Shown here one piece after another: positions 8,502-64,000 of a DNA stretch of 64,000 nucleotides. The first letter of the stretch is position 1. Each line of letters starts with the position of its first letter. The position numbers were made by a program, and so were the translations under genes. Under the pieces are notes generated by a model that had not been told where the DNA came from, did no database searches, and worked only from the letters and a program-made list of their open reading frames with translations. Origin of the DNA: Octopus sinensis. Lineage: Eukaryota. The DNA lies in the NCBI RefSeq assembly GCF_006345805.1, contig NC_043011.1:20968464-21032463 (forward strand), read 5' to 3'.

Positions 8502-9274
8502 CATATATATATATATAGCATATCTGGCCTTGACATTTATTTTATTCATATGGTGATGTTTCCTTTTTAAGATAGCAGGAAGTATAATTTGGCGGTAATT
8601 TAGCCAATTATATCTAAATTGAGCAGATTTGGCATGAAAGTATTCCATTCATCTCTGTATTTATTAGGGAGGACTACATTCACTAATATATCCTTCCATT
8701 TTTAAGGTTGAAGGATGTGATTTGTAGGAGTTCTGGCTGCTACATTTAACAGGCCAATTTACTGTACAGAGGCTCCCTGAGTAGCTCTGATTGACTGGAC
8801 TTGTGATAAAATGCATTCAAACCATGACCATCCTGCCTTGTTATCCAATGTTCTTTAATTTCTAAAATCATAGAGCATGTGATCAAAATCTGATTTGGTT
8901 GCTATTTCTAGAGTTTCAAGCAGCCATACAGAGATGTAACAGAGGTACTTCTAGGCGCAATAGTTTAGCCCAAGGTTAGATGTGATCAGACAGAAGTTAT
9001 GGTAAAAAGAGTTCCAGTGAGCACCAGATTTTTGCTGTAATCCTTTAGTGTTCAGATTGTTCTATCAAACGTAATGCTTATTTATTTAGAATTAATCATA
9101 CATTCTCTTGTAGCTTCAAGATTTCAATGCTACTCATGCCGGTGTTATGTAAAAAGCACCCAGCATACTCTATGAAGTGGTTGGTGTTAGGAAGGGCATC
9201 CAGCCATAGAAACCATGCCATAACAGATAATTGGAGTCTGGGCAGCTCCCATCTAACCAGCTCAATGTCAAACC

Positions 9275-9506
9275 TATTTCTTTACTACCCACAAGGGGCT
9301 AAACAAAGAGAAGACAAACATGGACAGACAAACGGATTAAGTCGATTATATCGACCCCAGTGCGTAACTGGTACTTATTTAATCGACCCCGAAAGGATGA
9401 AAGGCAAAGTCGTCCTCAGCGGAATTTGAACTCAGAACGTAACGGCAGACGAAATACAGCTATGCATTTCACCCGGCGTGCTAACGTTTCTGCCAGCTCG
9501 CCGCCT
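9275..9506 (-). mobile_element. SINE-C, full length, nested in SINE-D
   Basis: Head ggcggcgagctggcagaaacgttag...gagttcaaattcc; core gactttgcctttcatcctttcggggtcgat; 13 bp TSD tcaatgtcaaacc (9262-9274 / 9511-9523). Confidence 0.9.
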
Positions 9507-10317
9507 TTTGTCAATGTCAAACCATCCAACCCATGCCAGCATGGAAAGCAGACACTAAACGATGATGGAAATGATGTTTGTGTATTTTTAGAATGACTTA
9601 GTAGAGGTTGTGTGAGAGGTGTGAGAGGTAGGGTCTGGTCAGTTTTAACATAAAAAAAGTTGAATGTTTGGGCTGGAATGAATGAAACAAGTAAAAGATA
9701 AAGCAAATCCCAGCTGCTACAAAACATCATGATCTTGCATCAGTTTTGTCTGGCAGGATATTTTGCATCTGCCAGCCACATGGCAAGCAAAGATTACAAT
9801 GATGTAGATACTGGATGATGGAAAAAATAAGAAAAAGGTCAGCTTAAGAACTCGGGGAACTGAACATTCTAGGACACACCTGAAATTCACAAGGACTAAT
9901 TATTCAGAGCAAAGAGAACTGCAATAAGTACTGGAGAATTGCTGCTTATGAATGTGACAATACAAGAAGACTTAAGTAAAAAGTAAGAGGCCACATCAGG
10001 TTCCATAGTCTGTTTTGGTTTGGTTTCTATGGTTGGAAGCCCTTCCTAACACCAACCACTTTACAGAGTGTACTTGGTGCTTTTTACATGGTACCATCAC
10101 CAATGCTTTTTATGTGGCACCAGCACCAGTGCATTTTATGTGACACCATCATCAGTGCTTTTTACATGGCACCAGCATCCACACCAATCCTTTTTACATG
10201 GCACCTTGGGTTTAGGATCTCAATTCTGTTGTGGTGGGTGGGTCTTCTTGAGTACAGCAACACACCACATATCTCGGTCCTCTGTCATCTCCATCGTAAG
10301 TCTGATATCTTTTATCT

Positions 10318-14489: not shown

Positions 14490-15384
14490 ACATGTTAATT
14501 CTTTTTTTGGCAACTAGATCTCAAAGTACATATAAAGCTGTAAATAATCATTTCAAATTTTAACCCAACATCAGTAATTTCAGGTGAAGTTCCCAGTGCT
14601 CAACTGGTACTTCTTCTATCGACCCCACAAGGATAAAACATAAAGTTGACCTCGGCGGGATTCAAACCCAGAACGTAAATATGGACGATACATTGTATAA
14701 AGCTATAATAATAGTATGTAAATATTTTTTTTTTTTTGCCCACAAGGGGCTAAACATAGAGGGGACAAACAAGGATGGACAAACGGATTAAGTCAATTAC
14801 ATCAACCCCAGTGCGTAACTGGTACTTAATTTATCGACCCCGAAATGATGAAAGGCAAAGTCGACCTCGGCGGAATTTGAACTCAGAAAGGGTTGTAAAA
14901 CCCTTTTGAATAGAAAAGGTCAAAGACTACAGCTGGGGTTCAAACCCACATCTTCTGTAAATGTGGATTCAAGTCCTGTAAATGTGGATTCAATTGATCC
15001 AAATTGTCTTCAAAATGATGTTATGTGATTCTTTGATATTATAAACATACAAGCAGTGGTTTACAACACTTAGCAATCTTGAAAATGAGGCTTGCTTATT
15101 TCATTTAGGTGGCAAGCTGGCAGAATCACTAGCATGCCGGACAGAGTGTTTAGTGGCATTTCATTCATCCTCACATTCTGAGTTCAAATTCCACTGAGGT
15201 TGACTTTGCCTTTCATACTTTTGGGATTGATAAAATAAGCAGTAGTTGAGCACTGGGGTTGATGTAATCGACTTAACCCTTCAACCAAAATTGCTGGCAT
15301 TGTGCTAAAATTTGAAACCTATAGTAGTTGGAAGGCATTTACAGACTGGCATCTTTCCCCTGACCAGAATACTTCGTATTTTAA

Positions 15385-15845
15385 GGCGGCACGATGGCAG
15401 AAACGTTGGAAAGCCAGGCAAAATGCTTAGCCGTATTTCGTATACCGCTATATTCTGAGTTCAAATTCCGCCGAGGTCGACTTTGCCTTTCATCCTTTCG
15501 GGGTCGATTAAATAAGTACCTATTTCTTTACTACCCACAAGGGGCTAAACATAGAGGGGACAAACAAGGACAGACAGAGGTATTAAGTCGATTAAATCGA
15601 CCCCAGTGCGTAACTGGTACTTAGTTTATCGACCCCGAAAGGATGAAAGGCAAAGTTGTCCTCGGCGGAATTTGAACGCAGAACGTAACGGCAGACGAAA
15701 TACGGCTACACATTTCGCCTGGCGTGCTAATGTTTCTGCCAGCTCACCGATTAAATAAGTACCGGTTACAAACTGGGGTCGATATAATCGACTTAATCCG
15801 GTTGTCCCCTCTGTGTGGAGCCCCTTGTGGGCAGTAAAGAAATAA
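15385..15845. mobile_element. SINE-C (+) containing an inverted SINE-C (-, 15521-15748)
   Basis: Inner TSD gattaaataagtacc (15506-15520 / 15749-15763). Confidence 0.92.
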
Positions 15846-16504
15846 AAATACTCTGTATTTAAGTAGTTTCAACCTTTTCACTAATAGCATCCCCTAATAA
15901 TTAAACATGATAATCTCCAAGTCCCTGAAAGAATCCTATCAACTAATTATACCTAACATCAGCACTTCAAGCCAAATGAAGCTCAAACAGCTAGAAACAG
16001 CAGCTAACTCTGCAAATCACATGCTTTTACCATCTTAAAAAAAAAAGTATCAACATTTCTGGATAATACCCGAATGTCTATACATCAGAAAGTAAAACAA
16101 AATACCTAATGCGGTTAGAATGTCTTTAATCATAGGTCTGTCCAATTAGGGTTGACTTGCGATTCAACGAGAACACCAACTGACAATTAAACCAGTTTTA
16201 AAATAATTTCTGGTTCACGATTTGTTAGCACTGGACATTGTTTACATTGTTTTCTAGCCCAAGTGTACATGTAGCTCGTCTTCTGTTCATTTAAGTAGCG
16301 TTTATGCATGAGTGTTATCTCCCGCCAAAATAATACCAAGTTCAAGCAATAAATTCTCCGTAATTAGCTGCAATGTTATTTTGCTGTGGTTCTGTGTAAA
16401 TAATGATGTTTTAACTATGGAACGAAACTGAAGACGTAACCTACTAGACGCAAAGCATTTGCATAATTTGTAAGACAACTAGATGGTAAATATAAATGAA
16501 GTAT

Positions 16505-36335: not shown

Positions 36336-39300
36336 CAATTCTTTTTTATTGGCCACAAGGGCTAACACGCATGATTACATAAAGGGACAAGACAGGACGA
36401 AAGGTTACAAAGGGTTTTGCCGTTTTTTAAAAACATCGAGTAAAAATCTTTATAACAACTTATAAAATTCAACAATGAAAAACTCCCAAAATGGGAGACG
36501 TCTCGAAATGTTCCCGGTGGAAAAAACCCTACAAAAGCCAACGGGAGCCTGGTCAAAAAAAGGGGGTGTAAGAGAGTCCCCTTTCTTCTCCTTTTACATT
36601 ACCTTTTTCTTTGAAATCACAGGCGAAACCTGAGAACTGGTCCATTTATACAGGCCAGTCTCGCACAATTCACCCACCTTTCATAAAACTTGCTATCGGA
36701 CAGCACTTTCCTCTCTAACCTCATCTTCCTTTTCAAGTGAAACTTGAAAAAGTTGATGAGGCCTTGACCAAGAGGAAAGTGTCTGACTTTAGCCCTTTCA
36801 AACGAGTCCACCACACACGACTTCTTTCGCGCCACAGCCACAAGGCACAAGAAAACGGCCTCGCCCTCCTTGTTAAAGGAGGTCGGCGGGGCAATCTTCA
36901 CTATGGATTCGGGCCGATAGTCGGATCCGTCCTACACGTGACAGTAGCTGTTCGACATAAACCCATATTTCAGCAATACTCGGGCACTGGACGAGTGCGT
37001 GCAGAACGGTTTCGTCGTCCTGGCAACACCTCGGGCAGGCCCGGCTGACGGCACTTCCGTGCCGGTAGAGTTTATCTCGAACAGGCAGAGCCCCTCGGTA
37101 GCACTGCCAGGCGAGAGACCTCTGGAAATTATCCATCGGCCCCGGCCCGAAAGTCCTCCCGAACAGACCGCTCAGTTCGTCGTCTTCAACGCCTAGAGTT
37201 TCCCCCGAGAACGTCGTCGCATTTTTCCTCCACTAACCCTCTATAGAACGCTAGAGTGGAGCTGTAACCGACCGCATTGCCCGCCTGGTGAGGGCGGAGA
37301 GGGCTTGACGGCACTCGAGGTGCCAAGCGCCCTTTCTCGGTCTACGTTTGATCCAGGTCTGCAGCTCCGTCAAAGAGACGAGCTGCGGAAAATCACGTCT
37401 GACAAAAGACGACCACACCTGTTCACCGTCTAGGAAGCGCTTGAGATGCCGCAGCCTGAGCGCATGTCTGCGCAACAGCAACCACGGCATTCCAAGGCCT
37501 CCGTTCAGCGGTCGTTGACAGCAGATGGATCGCCTGACCAGTGGCACCTGACCCTTCCACAAAAAGTCGAAGAGCAGGCGTACCAGCTTGGCCAACCAGC
37601 GGTCGGGACAAGGGACGACGGTCAAGCGGTAATAGATGACGGATGCGATGTACGCATTCGCCACCTCCGCTCGACCTTTCAGGGACAGCTTCCTCTCGGC
37701 CCATTTCTGGGTGAGACGTGCCACCCTGCTCGTCACCTCTCTTCCCAGTTCTTATCCACCTGGAGTCCGGACCGAACCAGACCCCGAGCAGTTTAACGGG
37801 TCCGTCTGTCCAGCGCCCTACGACGCTGTTGGACGGCATGGGCTTGCCTCTCCAGGTGCCCAGTTGCAAGCCCACAGACTTTTCCGCGTTAATCTTTGCC
37901 CCTGTCACCGCTTCGTACTGGTTTAGCGTCTCGCCAATCAGGCCAATGTGCCTGTGGCTCGACACCACCACGGTGACGTCGTCGGCATAAGCAGACACGC
38001 TGTTTCCGCCTCCTAGATCGCGCGGGATGCCCCTCAAAGCCTCCAACTTGCGCAGTAATGGCTCGAGAGTCAAAATGTACAAGAGGGAGGAGAGAGGGCA
38101 TCCTTGGCGGACCGAACGCGAGATGTCGAACGGTTCCGAAAGGTGACCGTTCACCCGTATCACCGAGCAGATGTTGCTGTATAAAGCAGCGATCCACCCG
38201 CGGAAGACTGGACCGAAGCCGGCTGCCTTGAGGACAGCTGCCAGGTACCGATGGTCGACCCTATCGAAGGCTTTACTCTGATCCAAGTTGATCAAAGCCC
38301 CACCCGCGCCAGCGTCGTTACCCACCCTCTCTATGATGTAGCGCATGAGATGGAGGTTGTCGTGTATCGACCTGGTCGGCACGGCGCATGTCTGCGTCCC
38401 GCCGACCAGCTTGTCCACGACAAGCGCCAATCTCTTGGCTAGCACCTTGGCCAAAATCTTCAACTCTGCATTGAGCAGAGTGATGGGCCGGAAATTCCCT
38501 ATAACGTCCCCCTTGTTTGGGTCCTTCTTTAGCAAAGCCACCACCCCTCGACAGACAAAAGCAGGAATTCTCCCGTTTTGCTGCCAGTTGCAGTAGACGT
38601 TTGCCAACAGGTCCGCAAACAAGTCTGGCATTGAAAAGTAAAGCTCGTAGGGCAGACCATCCAACCCGGCGATCTACCTCTCGTGCAACTCTTCATCGCT
38701 TCCTGTACTTCCCAGGCAGATATCGGTCCTTCGCAGCACTCTGCCTCGCTGTCCGAGAGTTGCGGCAGTCCGTCCAGGTACACACCGAAGTCTGTACCGT
38801 TGGTGTCCGTTCCACCGCTCGTCCCAAACAGTTGAGCAAAGTGCCGCTGAAGCACCGTACACATCTGCTTCGGTTGGGTAACCTCGCGCCCGTTCTGGTC
38901 CACCAAAGACCGAATGGTTGCTCTGTTGCCTCGCTTCGCCTCCGCCACGCGGGCCCATCGAGCGGCTCTAGTCCCCTCCCCGCTTAGCGAACGTGCCTTA
39001 GCTCTGACAACGCAGCCTTCGTGTTTGGCGTCGAAGTGTTGGTCGAGGGCCAACCTTGCCGCCAACACGTCGGTCGCGATGCCAGTGTCAAGAGCCTCGT
39101 CTAGTTTCTTAACTAAATCCCGCTCTCTCTTCCTACGTTCAATAGCTAGAGTCTTACTATACCTAATCGACTCTACTCTAATTGCTCTCTTGAGGGCAAA
39201 CCACCAGTTATTGTTGATGATTGCCCCCGTGAGCGCCCGCTTAACTAGTAAACTAATCCGGTCTCTGTAAGCTTTGCACGCCGTTAACGACGCGTTCAGC

Positions 39301-40300
39301 TTCCAGTAGCCGGGTCCCTGTCTATGTAGCCTATCTAAGTCGACCGTACAGATCACTAATTTGTGGTCCGTATATTCGACTAGGTGGAATTGTGGACACC
39401 CTACGCTGTCCTACAAAACACTCTATCTAAGTACGATCTAGACGACCCGATGCGGTTTGTCCAAGTCCACATTGGCACATTCGGGTTGTCTAGTCGAAAC
39501 CTGTCGGACAGCTGAAAGCGGCCGAGTAGGTTGGCGAGGCTCTTGCACCCTCCCCCTCTCCTATCAGACGCTCCCCTGCCCACCCGATCGAAACGTTCGT
39601 CTAAGACAGCGTTCCAATCCCCAACTAGTACTAGAGTGCGTGACGTTCCCAGGAAAACTTCCAGACGTTTGAAATAATCCGACTGCCCTGCTCCTGTCGG
39701 AGCGTAGGCAGCCAGCAGTCTGAAAGCACCGCCGTCACTACCGTCCACGTCGAGGACCACCAACTTACCTTCTGGATCCAAGAAGACTGTTCTTATTTTC
39801 AGGTCCAGGCCTTCCGAAACAACACCGCAGTACCACCACCGCCCGCTCCCGGCCGACACGGAGATAGAAATATCTCGTATCCGCCGAAAAGGGCTGCGAG
39901 TTCCTGCGGGTCGGAGAGCCTGGTTTCACTGATGGCTGCTACATCCACATCATGAAACCTCAGGTCGTTTAACAGGTGACCCGAGGCCTCTCACATTCAA
40001 GCAACCGATTCTAAGATTTGCCATGTTTCAAAAGTTAGGGGAAAAAAAGGAGAAAAAAGGCTCTACTTACTGTTGTTGGTGGTGGGGGTGGCTCCCTTGT
40101 GCTTTTGCACGGGTGCTTTAATAATATTTTTGTAAAGTTTCTGAGAGAAACTTTTCCCTAACGATCCCACATCGTTAGGGAATATTTGTTTTATTTCGTT
40201 GTAAACTGTTTTGTTTATTTTAATTGTGAGAATGTGTGCTGGTGGTGTGTTGTGTGTAGGTATTATGAAATCTGTAATGTTTGTGCTTGTTTTGTTTTTC
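36336..40300 (-). mobile_element. L1/Tx1-clade non-LTR retrotransposon, 5'-truncated (end of probable ORF1, full-length frameshifted ORF2, 3' UTR)
   Basis: GC-rich block flanked on both sides by (AAT)n. An ORF2 with endonuclease, RT and cysteine-rich domains spans 40024-36617. AATAAA lies near the 3' end on the - strand. Confidence 0.93.
36617..40024 (-). pseudogene. LINE ORF2 (APE endonuclease + reverse transcriptase + CCHC zinc knuckle), split by several frameshifts
   Basis: Starts MANLRIGCLNVRGLG at 40024. APE motifs 'AYAP', 'GDWN', 'SYLDR'; 'GPGYWKLN'; RT motifs 'NFRPITLLN', 'DQSKAFDRV', 'RQGCPLS', 'YADD' (37978-37989); 'CPRC...ETVLHALVQC'. Confidence 0.92.
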
Positions 40301-40735
40301 AATAATAATAATAATAATAATCCTTTCTACTATAGGCACAAGGCTTGAAATTTGGGGGAGGGGACTAGTCGATTACATCAACACCCAGTGCTTCACTGAT
40401 ACTTAATTCCTTGACCCCGAAAGGATGAAAGGCAAAGTCGACATCGGCGGAATTTGAACTCGTAATAATAACAACTATTTGAAATAATAATTGTTTCAGA
40501 AGGCCAGCAATTTTAGCGTGAGGGGAAATTGTTGATTACATCGACCTCATTACCGAGCAGTACTTTATTTCATCGACTTCAAAGGCTAAAGTTAGCCCCA
40601 AATAAATTATTTCTTTATTTAACACAAGAATAACACAAATAAAAACAGGACAACACCGCTGCAGGGTAAGATAAATAAGTAAAAAAAGGATTGCGTTGTA
40701 ACATAAGCTTATGTATAATATGGAAAAAATATAAT

Positions 40736-60400: not shown

Positions 60401-60538
60401 GTAATTTTGTGTATTTGTGTGTATGTCATATATGTGTATATATGGTGCAGGCATAGTGAACGGTTTAGAAAATTGCTTTGTTCTGGCTGTACTCCCTTCA
60501 GCCATCCCACACTTACTTATATGTGTTGAATATATCTG

Positions 60539-60762
60539 TTTCTTTATTACCCACAAGGGGCTAAACATAGAGGGGACAAACAAGGACAGATAAACAGATT
60601 AAGTCGATTACATCGACCCCAGTGCGTAACTGGTACTTAATTTATCGACCCCAAAAGGATGAAAGACAAAGTCGACCTCGGCTGAATTTGAACTCAGAAC
60701 GTAACGGCAGACGAAATACGGCTCCACATTTTGCTCAGCGTGCTAACGTTTCTGCCAGCTCA
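60539..60762 (-). mobile_element. SINE-C
   Basis: Collinear with 9275-9506. Other copies or tail variants lie at ~2725-2942 (+), 14545-14690 (-), 14735-14888 (-), 15107-15325 (+) and 40301-40462 (-). Confidence 0.88.
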
Positions 60763-61986: not shown

Positions 61987-62957
61987 AATTTTGTGAGTTA
62001 ACAGGCTTTCAAATTCATGCATATGTATGCATTATTAGCGCATAAAATGTACTATTTCTTAGTTATGTAGCTTGAAGTTAGAGTTATGTACCATGATCAG
62101 AAAATGTAAGGGAGATGACTCGGAGTTTCATTATGTATCCTGTTGAGATGGCGACTTATCAAGAGTCGTTACAAGTTCAGGCAGAATGTTTTACAGTGTT
62201 TGTTTTCGTCCTCTGTGCTCTGAATTCGAAAGTCTACGAAGTCATTTTTATTTTTCATCCTTTTTGAGATCGATAAATAAAATATCGGTCACTGTACTGG
62301 AAACGATTCTTCTTTCACAGTCTCCCTGTGTTCAGACCTCGATAGGGAAGGACTCCATCAGGTTTATAATACTGAATATTATAAATACTGAATCCTGCCC
62401 TCCCGCACAAACACTGAATGGTTAATGAAATTTGTTTCTGGAGCAGGGACAGACCCTTGAAACTGCAGGCTCTTGTAGACTGGTGAGATTGACATGACTA
62501 ATGCACCACCAAAAAGCATCTATCAGTAAATGTTTGCAAAAGTGATCTCTGCTGCTTAAAGGCACATAAGAACCAGGAAGTGGTGTTAGAAATCTCATAT
62601 GCTTGTAAAATATACTTAACTAAAAGTACCAAGGCAGTTTAGGCTGTTAACTCATTCATCATTGCCTTCCGTGACAAGTCCTACTTCACTTAACATTTAT
62701 TTCAAGAAGGAGATGCAGTACCTAAAATTTAACAGGCATCCTAGACTCATAACACTCATGGCCTCTGCTGGTCCTTTGGATTAGTAACACCCATAACTTT
62801 TGTAAGCCTTCTCAATAGCTGCCATAACCTTTGGAGGCTTCCTGGATTAATAGTTTCCTTAGCTTTTCTTTCTAGAATGATGAGGTTGGTTGATGCTAAT
62901 GGGGTGTGGTGGAGCAAATGTGGACAGTAGGAAGTGAGTTATAGAGATTTGATGTAG

Positions 62958-63440
62958 GGCGGCGAGCTGACAGAATTGTTAGCACGCCGGGCGGAATGCT
63001 TAGTGGTATTTCGTCTGCCGTTGCATTCTGAGTTCAAGTTCTGCCGAGGTCGACTTTGCCTTTCATCCTTTCAGGGTCGATGAAGTAAGTACCTATTTCT
63101 ATTTCTTTACTACCCACTAGGGGCTAATCACAGAGGGGACAAACAAGGACAGATAAACAGATTAAGTCGATTACATTGACCCCAGTGCGTAACTGGTACT
63201 TAATTTATCGACCCCGAAAGGATGAAAGGCAAAGTCGACCTTGGCGGAATTTGAACTCAGAATGTAGTGGCAGACGAAATACCACTAAGCATTTTGCTCG
63301 GCACGCTAACATTTCTGCAAGCTCGCCGCCTTTAAATAAGTACCAGTTACGCACTGGGGTCAATGCAATTGACTTAATCTCTTTGTCTGTCCTTGTTTGT
63401 CCCCTCTGCGTTTAGCCCCTTGTGGGCAATAAAGAAAAAT
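62958..63440. mobile_element. SINE-C (+) containing an inverted SINE-C (-, 63094-63331)
   Basis: Inner TSD tgaagtaagtacc / ttaaataagtacc (63081-63093 / 63332-63344). Confidence 0.92.
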
Positions 63441-64000
63441 ATATAGGGAGTTGATGCTCTGAAAAGGAGGAACTTGGCAAACTTTGATGAAGTAAGTTAA
63501 AGTACTAATAAAGGGGAAGAATAGGTTCAGGTAGTTTGCAGCTTCTTATTTTAGAGCAACAAAAGTTGTAAAAGTTGTACACAAGGCAGAGAGAGGACAC
63601 GGTGTTGTGTAGTTTTGTTTTCGTGGCATGTTTGGTGGAATTGTCAATAAGTGAGATGGTGCTGTCTGGATTGGGTTTTTGTTTACCGAAATCCGCTCAC
63701 AAGAGTTTGGTTGACCTGGGTCTGTAGTAGAATGAGACTTGCCCAAGTGTCACACAGTGGGACTGAACTCAAGACTACTACATAGTTGGAAAGCAAGCTT
63801 CTTAACCACATAATCGCATTTGCATAACACAGAAAAGCCAATCTCTGGGAGATTTGGTCCCATAGAAACTATACACATGGTCACTAAGAAGAAAAACTAA
63901 TTGAAAATTGTAAAGGAAGGATGGTTGTCTACAACTGTTTTTATGACTTTAAAGAGGCTGAAAGTGAATTCAGTAGGAATAAGAGTTGATAGAGATATTG

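Follow-up and report, generated by a model that had tools for sequence, protein, structure and literature searches.

Antisense SINE nests in an octopus genome are the visible tip of a strong, lineage-specific self-insertion system

The 64,000-nucleotide stretch of Octopus sinensis DNA that was analysed here (hereafter, the window) contains two loci at which a SINE is interrupted by an antisense copy of itself. All element positions are given in the numbering of a single full-length copy of 233 nt on the reverse strand (9275–9507). At the first locus, the 5′ part of the host SINE (positions 1–138; 15383–15520, forward strand) ends in ...TAAGTACC and is followed by an inner SINE that entered the host at position 138 in antisense (15521–15748, reverse strand; positions ~6–233). 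The 3′ part of the host (15749–15844, forward strand) opens with the right copy of the inner target duplication and carries the tail of a lineage designated C221. The inner duplication is an exact 15-bp repeat (15506–15520 and 15749–15763, forward strand), or 16 bp with a shared C, and a probable outer duplication of the host (15366–15381 and 15845–15860, forward strand; 13/16 match) has the AG-type start expected for a C221 copy. At the second locus, the host (positions 3–138; 62958–63093, forward strand) is followed by a full-length inner SINE with a doubled 6-nt tail unit (63094–63332, reverse strand) and by the host 3′ part (63333–63439, forward strand), which likewise opens with the right copy of the inner duplication (63082–63093 and 63333–63344; 10/12 match). 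The probable outer duplication of this second host (62940–62954 and 63442–63456, forward strand; 13/15 match) has a TA-type start. Divergence between the two inner copies amounts to 13.5% of sites.

An earlier note, made from the letters of the window alone, had described a SINE nested antisense in itself at the same nucleotide at both loci, and the cut indeed falls after host position 138 twice. Its further observations were confirmed as well: the target duplications are separate and differ in length (15 bp versus about 12 bp), the inner tail unit occurs once at the first locus and twice at the second, the outer flanks are distinct, each host SINE having its own outer duplication, and the copy at 9275 also follows ACC, its 13-bp duplication (9262–9274 and 9511–9523) ending in ACC and, in the element sense, starting with GGT. 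Further SINE copies lie in the window at 14728–14888, 60533–60762, 2725–2893 and 15107–15279; among them, one is 5′-truncated, one is full length with a mutated tail and two are older with other tails.

SINEBase defines SINEs as interspersed elements of <1 kb with at least 100 copies, and refers to at least 60% identity to tRNA, 5S or 7SL RNA over 60 nt (PMC3531059). The present element has the size and copy number of a SINE (233 nt; at least 115,353 exact tail matches genome-wide), as well as target duplications (11–28 bp in 88 cases) and truncated inserts, which are traits of LINE-mobilised SINEs. At the level of description, it resembles abundant short tRNA-like repeats of octopods, namely OK, OR1, OR2 and the MetaSINEs (PMC4824008, PMC4758252); in MetaSINEs, the tRNA head is followed by a Meta domain of 66 bp (PMC4824008), and octopus SINEs reportedly amount to about 11.6% of a genome (PMC13282606). 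The element contains A-box-like and B-box-like motifs, as judged by eye only, and an Rfam scan of positions 9200–9600 gave no match at E ≤ 1. Presumably, it bears some resemblance to the Meta domain.

The nested structure is not peculiar to the window. An exact 27-nt antisense junction occurs 266 times genome-wide (2.72 Gb) versus 0 times for a reversed control, and the 17-nt tail followed by 11 nt of the position-138 site gives 724 matches, which places the number of antisense position-138 junctions at 724 at least. On an estimate from these 724 matches, about 0.02–0.05 are expected per 64-kb window, against two here; because many windows of the genome would hold two, the pair needs no special cause. 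Duplication length ranges from 11 to 28 bp in 33 nested cases, and across 30 nested loci the duplication length, the 5′ end and the host family all vary. The hosts belong to several subfamilies, some of them with a different tail (B), and the inner copies at position 138 fall into three lineages of 22, 15 and 10. The trees of inner copies that the note had proposed were built: on a 220-row tree, the 38 inner-copy rows are scattered, needing 33 changes versus a shuffled mean of 35.4, and a single clade of inner copies was rejected (approximately unbiased (AU) test, p=0.006; 25/38 inner copies versus 35 others).

Because the junction recurs genome-wide and the inner copies do not form one clade, the two loci in the window are independent antisense insertions, as the note had supposed. 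The alternative, that one composite was amplified as a unit, draws on the alignment of the two loci over most of their length, but nested copies vary in duplication length, in truncation point, in host family and in the lineage of the inner copy, and the distance between inner copies (0.081) is similar to that between other copies. With the single clade also rejected, we consider this alternative exceedingly improbable.

Antisense self-insertions were then counted per consensus position by searching for the tail followed, within a set interval, by an antisense SINE anchor. The profile covered positions 21–66, 87–122, 118–148 and 144–188; sites within the lists were tallied by eye, and the anchors differ in conservation, so that the counts are only roughly comparable. 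Positions 118–148 gave 526 matches, and 94 of the first 100 lie at 138 ± 1. By comparison, 74 matches were found for 144–188 (about 40 at 161), 60 for 87–122 (25 at 87) and 17, scattered, for 21–66. An even spread is thus rejected for the four intervals covered, and the count per consensus position that the note had called for yields a sharp hotspot at a single register. No antisense GGT other than that at position 138 occurs in the SINE consensus.

The sharpness of this hotspot, together with a residual enrichment, is what favours the note's version of events, in which a dedicated system finds its ACC on the opposite strand of the SINE core and antisense self-insertion is actively promoted. 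The rate at which the site is used argues otherwise. In 464 kb not chosen for such events, SINE cores already supply 73/464 GGTAC sites (about 16%) and 73/117 GGTACTT sites. A search for the tail followed by GGTAC, in a pattern whose last letter excluded the canonical position-138 cases, gave 1,769 matches; the first 100 comprise 14 position-50 variants, 7–10 decayed position-138 cases and 76–79 insertions outside SINEs. Extrapolated, external GGTAC insertions number ~1,700, compared with 724 at position 138. SINE cores therefore receive about 30% of GGTAC insertions (odds ratio near 2.3); for GGTACTT the share is about 72% against the 73/117 of sites supplied, an enrichment near 1.6-fold. Because the core share of insertions is only about twice the core share of sites, motif and abundance account for most of the antisense hotspot: GGTA(T/C) sites are used anywhere, with an enrichment in cores of only about twofold. 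A sense site described below is, moreover, used 38 times more often. The dedicated antisense system was thus not borne out; it is already largely refuted, and we regard it as very unlikely. On contig C1, several SINE insertions have the common target GGTACTGG(C/T)A, which suggests a hotspot in another repeat family, and one insertion of the tail before GGTAC lies antisense in a B tail.

The main route of self-insertion, overlooked in the earlier note, is in sense at position 50. Its exact junction occurs 27,854 times genome-wide, 38 times the antisense position-138 count, and a position-50 joint was also present in contigs of three other sequencing runs. Position 50 in sense directly follows 39 of the first 100 tails listed genome-wide, 7/34 tails near the window and 7/11 in random stretches; position 17 in sense follows 6 of the first 100 listed tails. 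SINE heads supply 21–30 of 664 GGTAT sites yet take 30/37 GGTAT junctions among those first 100 tails, which corresponds to an enrichment of roughly 60–90-fold, the range depending on whether arrays count once. This is an upper-side estimate because tandem duplication, of which there are signs in identical units (L160, L029 and R317) and in six-unit arrays, makes part of the junction count. At the second GGTA of the element (position 219), sense insertions were found after 0/334 tails, and homology in sense is therefore insufficient on its own.

Copies joined in this way form head-to-tail arrays with the structure [1–233][50–end]n inside one outer duplication, the old one of the host, and the position-50 insertions are usually seamless at the 5′ side. 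In 43 arrays, the divergence of the head correlates with the last unit's (rho 0.47, p=0.0016) but not with the first body's (rho −0.02); in 114 monomers, it follows the body (rho 0.27). The last unit is older than the first body in 25 arrays versus 13 with the reverse (p=0.026) and often carries the older B tail. In 12 arrays with an old host, positions 16–49 are diverged (0.10–0.16) and positions 51–100 are young (0.04–0.05). Truncated inserts retain a visible duplication (for example, L023), and two full-length inserts retain a doubled head. The arrays are read as insertions into an older copy in which the new cDNA would have annealed to the host head.

Most of the arrays could instead have been made by template jumping within a single insertion, by the copying of read-through RNA that spans several units, or by tandem duplication at a later time. 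Such routes would fit the single outer duplication around whole arrays, the young or identical units in some of them (L026, L160 and L029) and the alleles at positions 45/50, which in several arrays go with the first body rather than with the last unit. They do not fit the age order of the units, last units of an older family with another tail, or a head whose age follows the last unit, and retained head fragments with visible duplications exist (L023, L177 and one near the window). We judge it improbable that they account for most arrays and retain insertion into an older copy as the preferred reading. Multiply nested insertions were seen together with satellite-like arrays that have a period of about 184 nt and five or six units (L004/L005, L029 and L160; contig C1:15416804–15417758 and 16064910–16065673), which suggests later tandem duplication.

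The landing motif directly after the tail differs by SINE lineage, being GGTAT, TATA or AGAAAC. From 358 tails in all, rows with a mutated tail or an unassignable lineage were dropped, and 122 external sites were used for a table of lineage against target. In the TAY lineage, 15/19 external targets start with GG versus 0/46 in C221 (p=2e-11), the targets of which are mostly AG and TA. Two lineages that are both about 93% identical to the consensus also differ: TG-T197 has 13 GG and 1 TA external targets, versus 7 GG and 18 TA for TG-C197 (p=1e-4). The target class clusters on the tree (35 changes for GG versus 65.3 when shuffled; 0/500), and a small independent replication sample (24 tails, 12 external) pointed in the same direction. 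Over 129 external sites, the stepwise match of the targets is significant through five letters of GGTAT and through six of AGAAAC, with no significant match beyond 5–6 nt.

Both of these motifs are found in sense in the SINE itself, GGTAT at position 50 and AGAAAC at position 17, and these are the commonest landing places of the GG lineages and the C221 lineage, respectively. The self-insertions agree: those at position 17 are C221 in 9/9 cases and those at position 138 in 0/47. The target duplication starts at +1, directly after the tail GAAATA and without overlap into it; at 39 external sites, the match into the tail is 0.21 at −1 and 0.15 at −2, and the base at −1 is a pyrimidine in 28/39. 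Ordinary in themselves, the antisense nests are what shows at the surface of a lineage-specific self-insertion system of unusual strength.

A candidate for the enzyme source lies in the window itself: a 5′-truncated, frameshifted LINE of L1/Tx1 type (36336–40300, reverse strand), in which Pfam searches of window pieces identified endonuclease, reverse transcriptase and zf-RVT domains. Its insertion site is the (ATT)n end of an older, related SINE with a B tail (40321–40461, reverse strand). With an APE endonuclease, a reverse transcriptase and a C-terminal zinc motif, it has the features of an L1-group ORF2; an intact natural copy of the family encodes an ORF2 of 1,145 amino acids, and the best match to a solved structure is L1 ORF2p (E=2e-51), compared with E=2e-22 for R2. 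The Tx1 label is provisional and rests on an upstream CCHC knuckle and microsatellite targeting. Among 120 listed homologues of the protein, the best named one is from Argonauta (71%), and none is a named Tx1 reference. The LINE terminus aligns with the SINE tail (score 43 versus a shuffle maximum of 37), and a hairpin with a CTTGT loop is predicted in the LINE, the A tail and the B tail, with differing stems. A second L1/Tx1-type LINE (L168–L170; contig C1, about 8.28 Mb) has in its 3′ untranslated region a stretch identical to the SINE tail body at 28/30 nt (score 57 versus 42), without the hairpin. The 3′ end that the SINE has in common with LINEs is hence the terminal hairpin region for the LINE in the window and the tail body for the second LINE. 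These similarities make the L1/Tx1-type clade the likely partner, as a candidate at clade level. CR1-like and RTE-like families among the best RVT_1 matches were rejected as partners, being without tail similarity.

Several observations were made alongside. Copies of the window LINE family are strung head to tail in tandem, with a repeat unit of about 5.8 kb and short (ATT)n stretches at the joints; among 150 listed matches, ten or more pairs of this kind can be made out, and several copies have open frames of over 1,100 amino acids (L301–L314). The second LINE terminates within a different abundant repeat, close to a site that the SINE has entered as well (L111). B-tail SINEs retain the CTTGT loop on a complementary stem of different sequence (40321–40461 in the window; L143, L060 and L084), older copies ending in (ATT)n and younger ones in mixed targets. 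A young CR1-like family (L226–L240; copies 95–99% identical, 958-amino-acid ORF) also ends in (ATT)n, and RTE-like families end differently.

The pattern of targets in the genome agrees with priming by read-through RNA, and we consider it probable that RNA extending past the SINE tail primes reverse transcription, so that daughters inherit the landing motif of their parent. In this scheme, an L1/Tx1-type enzyme would bind the SINE 3′ hairpin and start at a fixed base, and the nicked DNA end would prime by pairing with the RNA letters read through from the flank of the source copy. Source copies at position 50 or 17 of another copy would be transcribed into the next unit, giving RNA that ends in GGUAU(UU) or AGAAAC, and these copies, or those in (TA)n, would pass the motif on; the SINE consensus contains no run of four T. 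Because the RNA of the source would carry the flanking letters of the parent's landing site, daughters would inherit the target and the loop would reinforce itself. Position 138, as the sole antisense GGT, could be used at about the rate given by motif and copy number because its GGTACTT would pair with GGUAUUU with one G–U wobble. The extra 60–90-fold at the sense sites would then be likely to come from homology that helps to complete the 5′ join as well. The note's proposal of priming on ACC accordingly stands in substance for the GG lineages, whereas the RNA pairing that it invoked is, here too, only deduced. Pairing of read-through RNA and 4-nt priming by L1 have precedents (PMC6530143 and PMC3649969, respectively).

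Traces of the RNA in the inserts themselves are equivocal. Position 50 is C in 0/94 downstream units versus 24% of host copies, which would fit a G supplied by the RNA but is ambiguous because the use of G50 hosts alone fits equally well. Mismatches in the duplications that point in the RNA direction are few, with about 4 toward G and 1 away. Four loci that appeared to be possible long RNA trailers turned out to be deletions or rearrangements.

The main rival to this scheme holds that several L1/Tx1-type LINE lineages, each with the preference of its own endonuclease, mobilise different SINE lineages without any RNA trailer. Tx1-clade LINEs do include site-specific families (PMC6007223, PMC4494074), and L1/Tx1-type 3′ ends here precede (ATT)n, (TATC)n or (AAT)n-like sequence and, in one case, lie in another repeat. 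The parts of the SINE tail found in the two LINEs are not the same, and the lineage markers lie in that LINE-like tail, so positions 197, 221 and 223 could also select LINE partners; the LINE candidates that were scored were the best 150 of 19,432. Yet the sequence that follows the 3′ ends of the window LINE family is AT-rich, mostly of (ATT)n type, and never GGTA (100 listed of 511 ends), and none of these ends, of 26 further ends or of 9 others had GGTA, AGAAAC or TATA after it. Two SINE lineages of the same age, told apart by one tail base, have sharply different targets, and the match of both motifs to the SINE's own sense head over 5–6 nt would have to be a coincidence (about 2%, on a rough count). 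We therefore rate the several-endonuclease account as unlikely, though a serious competitor, and prefer priming by read-through RNA. A broader statement, that target specificity resides in inherited RNA outside the element, that self-insertion turns the element's own head into the guide, that one LINE enzyme is retargeted by lineage (GGTAT, AGAAAC, TATA) and that ~1/4–1/3 of >100,000 copies are seamless, homology-joined self-insertions, is put forward tentatively, as a possibility that we would not yet favour.

Comparison with known systems places the octopus SINE beside several of them. Self-inserting Alu elements likewise have one dominant position in their own family, mostly in sense, a pattern explained by endonuclease sites together with RNA 3′-end pairing (Levy et al. 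2010, PMC2836564). Alu pairs through its own poly(A), whereas the octopus SINE has neither poly(A) nor a repeat tail and enters mixed-sequence, lineage-specific targets; it differs further in its sharp antisense site and in the loss of the duplicated head in sense insertions. In crocodilians, SINEU and Tx1-Mar also show a target preference within a repeat, tandem insertions and a Tx1-type partner (Kojima 2015, PMC4494074), but there the SINE and the LINE have one common Mariner target; the octopus SINE targets itself, and its targets differ from the (ATT)n of the candidate LINE and between SINE lineages. In SINEs mobilised by RTE, such as AfroSINEs, the terminal repeat predicts the first duplicated base, and near-identical lineages in one genome have different target starts, attributed to RNA 3′-end pairing (Nishiyama and Ohshima 2018, PMC6007223). 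The AfroSINE guide is a terminal microsatellite inside the element with a 1–2-nt match, whereas the putative guide of the octopus SINE lies beyond the element end, matches 5–6 nt and equals the element's own head sequence. The route proposed here is also similar to that of R2Ol and R1Bm, for which the RNA includes sequence from downstream in the target, and insertion becomes more efficient when this stretch pairs with the target (PMC6530143; R1Bm via PMC6007223); those elements are autonomous with a fixed endonuclease target in rDNA, and the octopus SINE is non-autonomous with a target that would change by lineage. In the passages of PMC4824008 and PMC4758252 that were consulted, OK, OR1, OR2 and the MetaSINEs are described with neither a partner LINE nor a target rule nor any self-insertion, and none of these was found for octopus SINEs in a literature search with Repbase and most subscription journals outside its scope.

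The tens of thousands of events constitute a natural experiment on the roles of the endonuclease and of RNA–DNA pairing in target choice by non-LTR elements, and they bear on whether 5′ homology completes integration. If the read-through scheme is correct, this would be a natural, RNA-programmed and self-reinforcing system of retrotransposon targeting, in which 5–6 RNA letters steer an L1/Tx1-type enzyme to mixed-sequence sites, and such an enzyme would bear on retrotransposon-based gene insertion. The arrays and chimeras would be mis-annotated in octopod genomes as many separate SINE families or dimers, and through the seamless head joins, SINE families can exchange their tails.

RNA reads of a related species, organism G, extend the picture beyond O. 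sinensis. About 0.2% of these reads carry the SINE (query, 9240–9540 of the window), and the C221/A223 tail is dominant among them. In two runs of one study, which are unstranded, lack defined ends and do not measure DNA copy number, position-17 joints outnumber position-50 joints by 709:60 and 411:51, which speaks for landing sites that follow the lineage. With another dominant lineage and mostly position-17 joints in organism G, hotspot use differs between related species.
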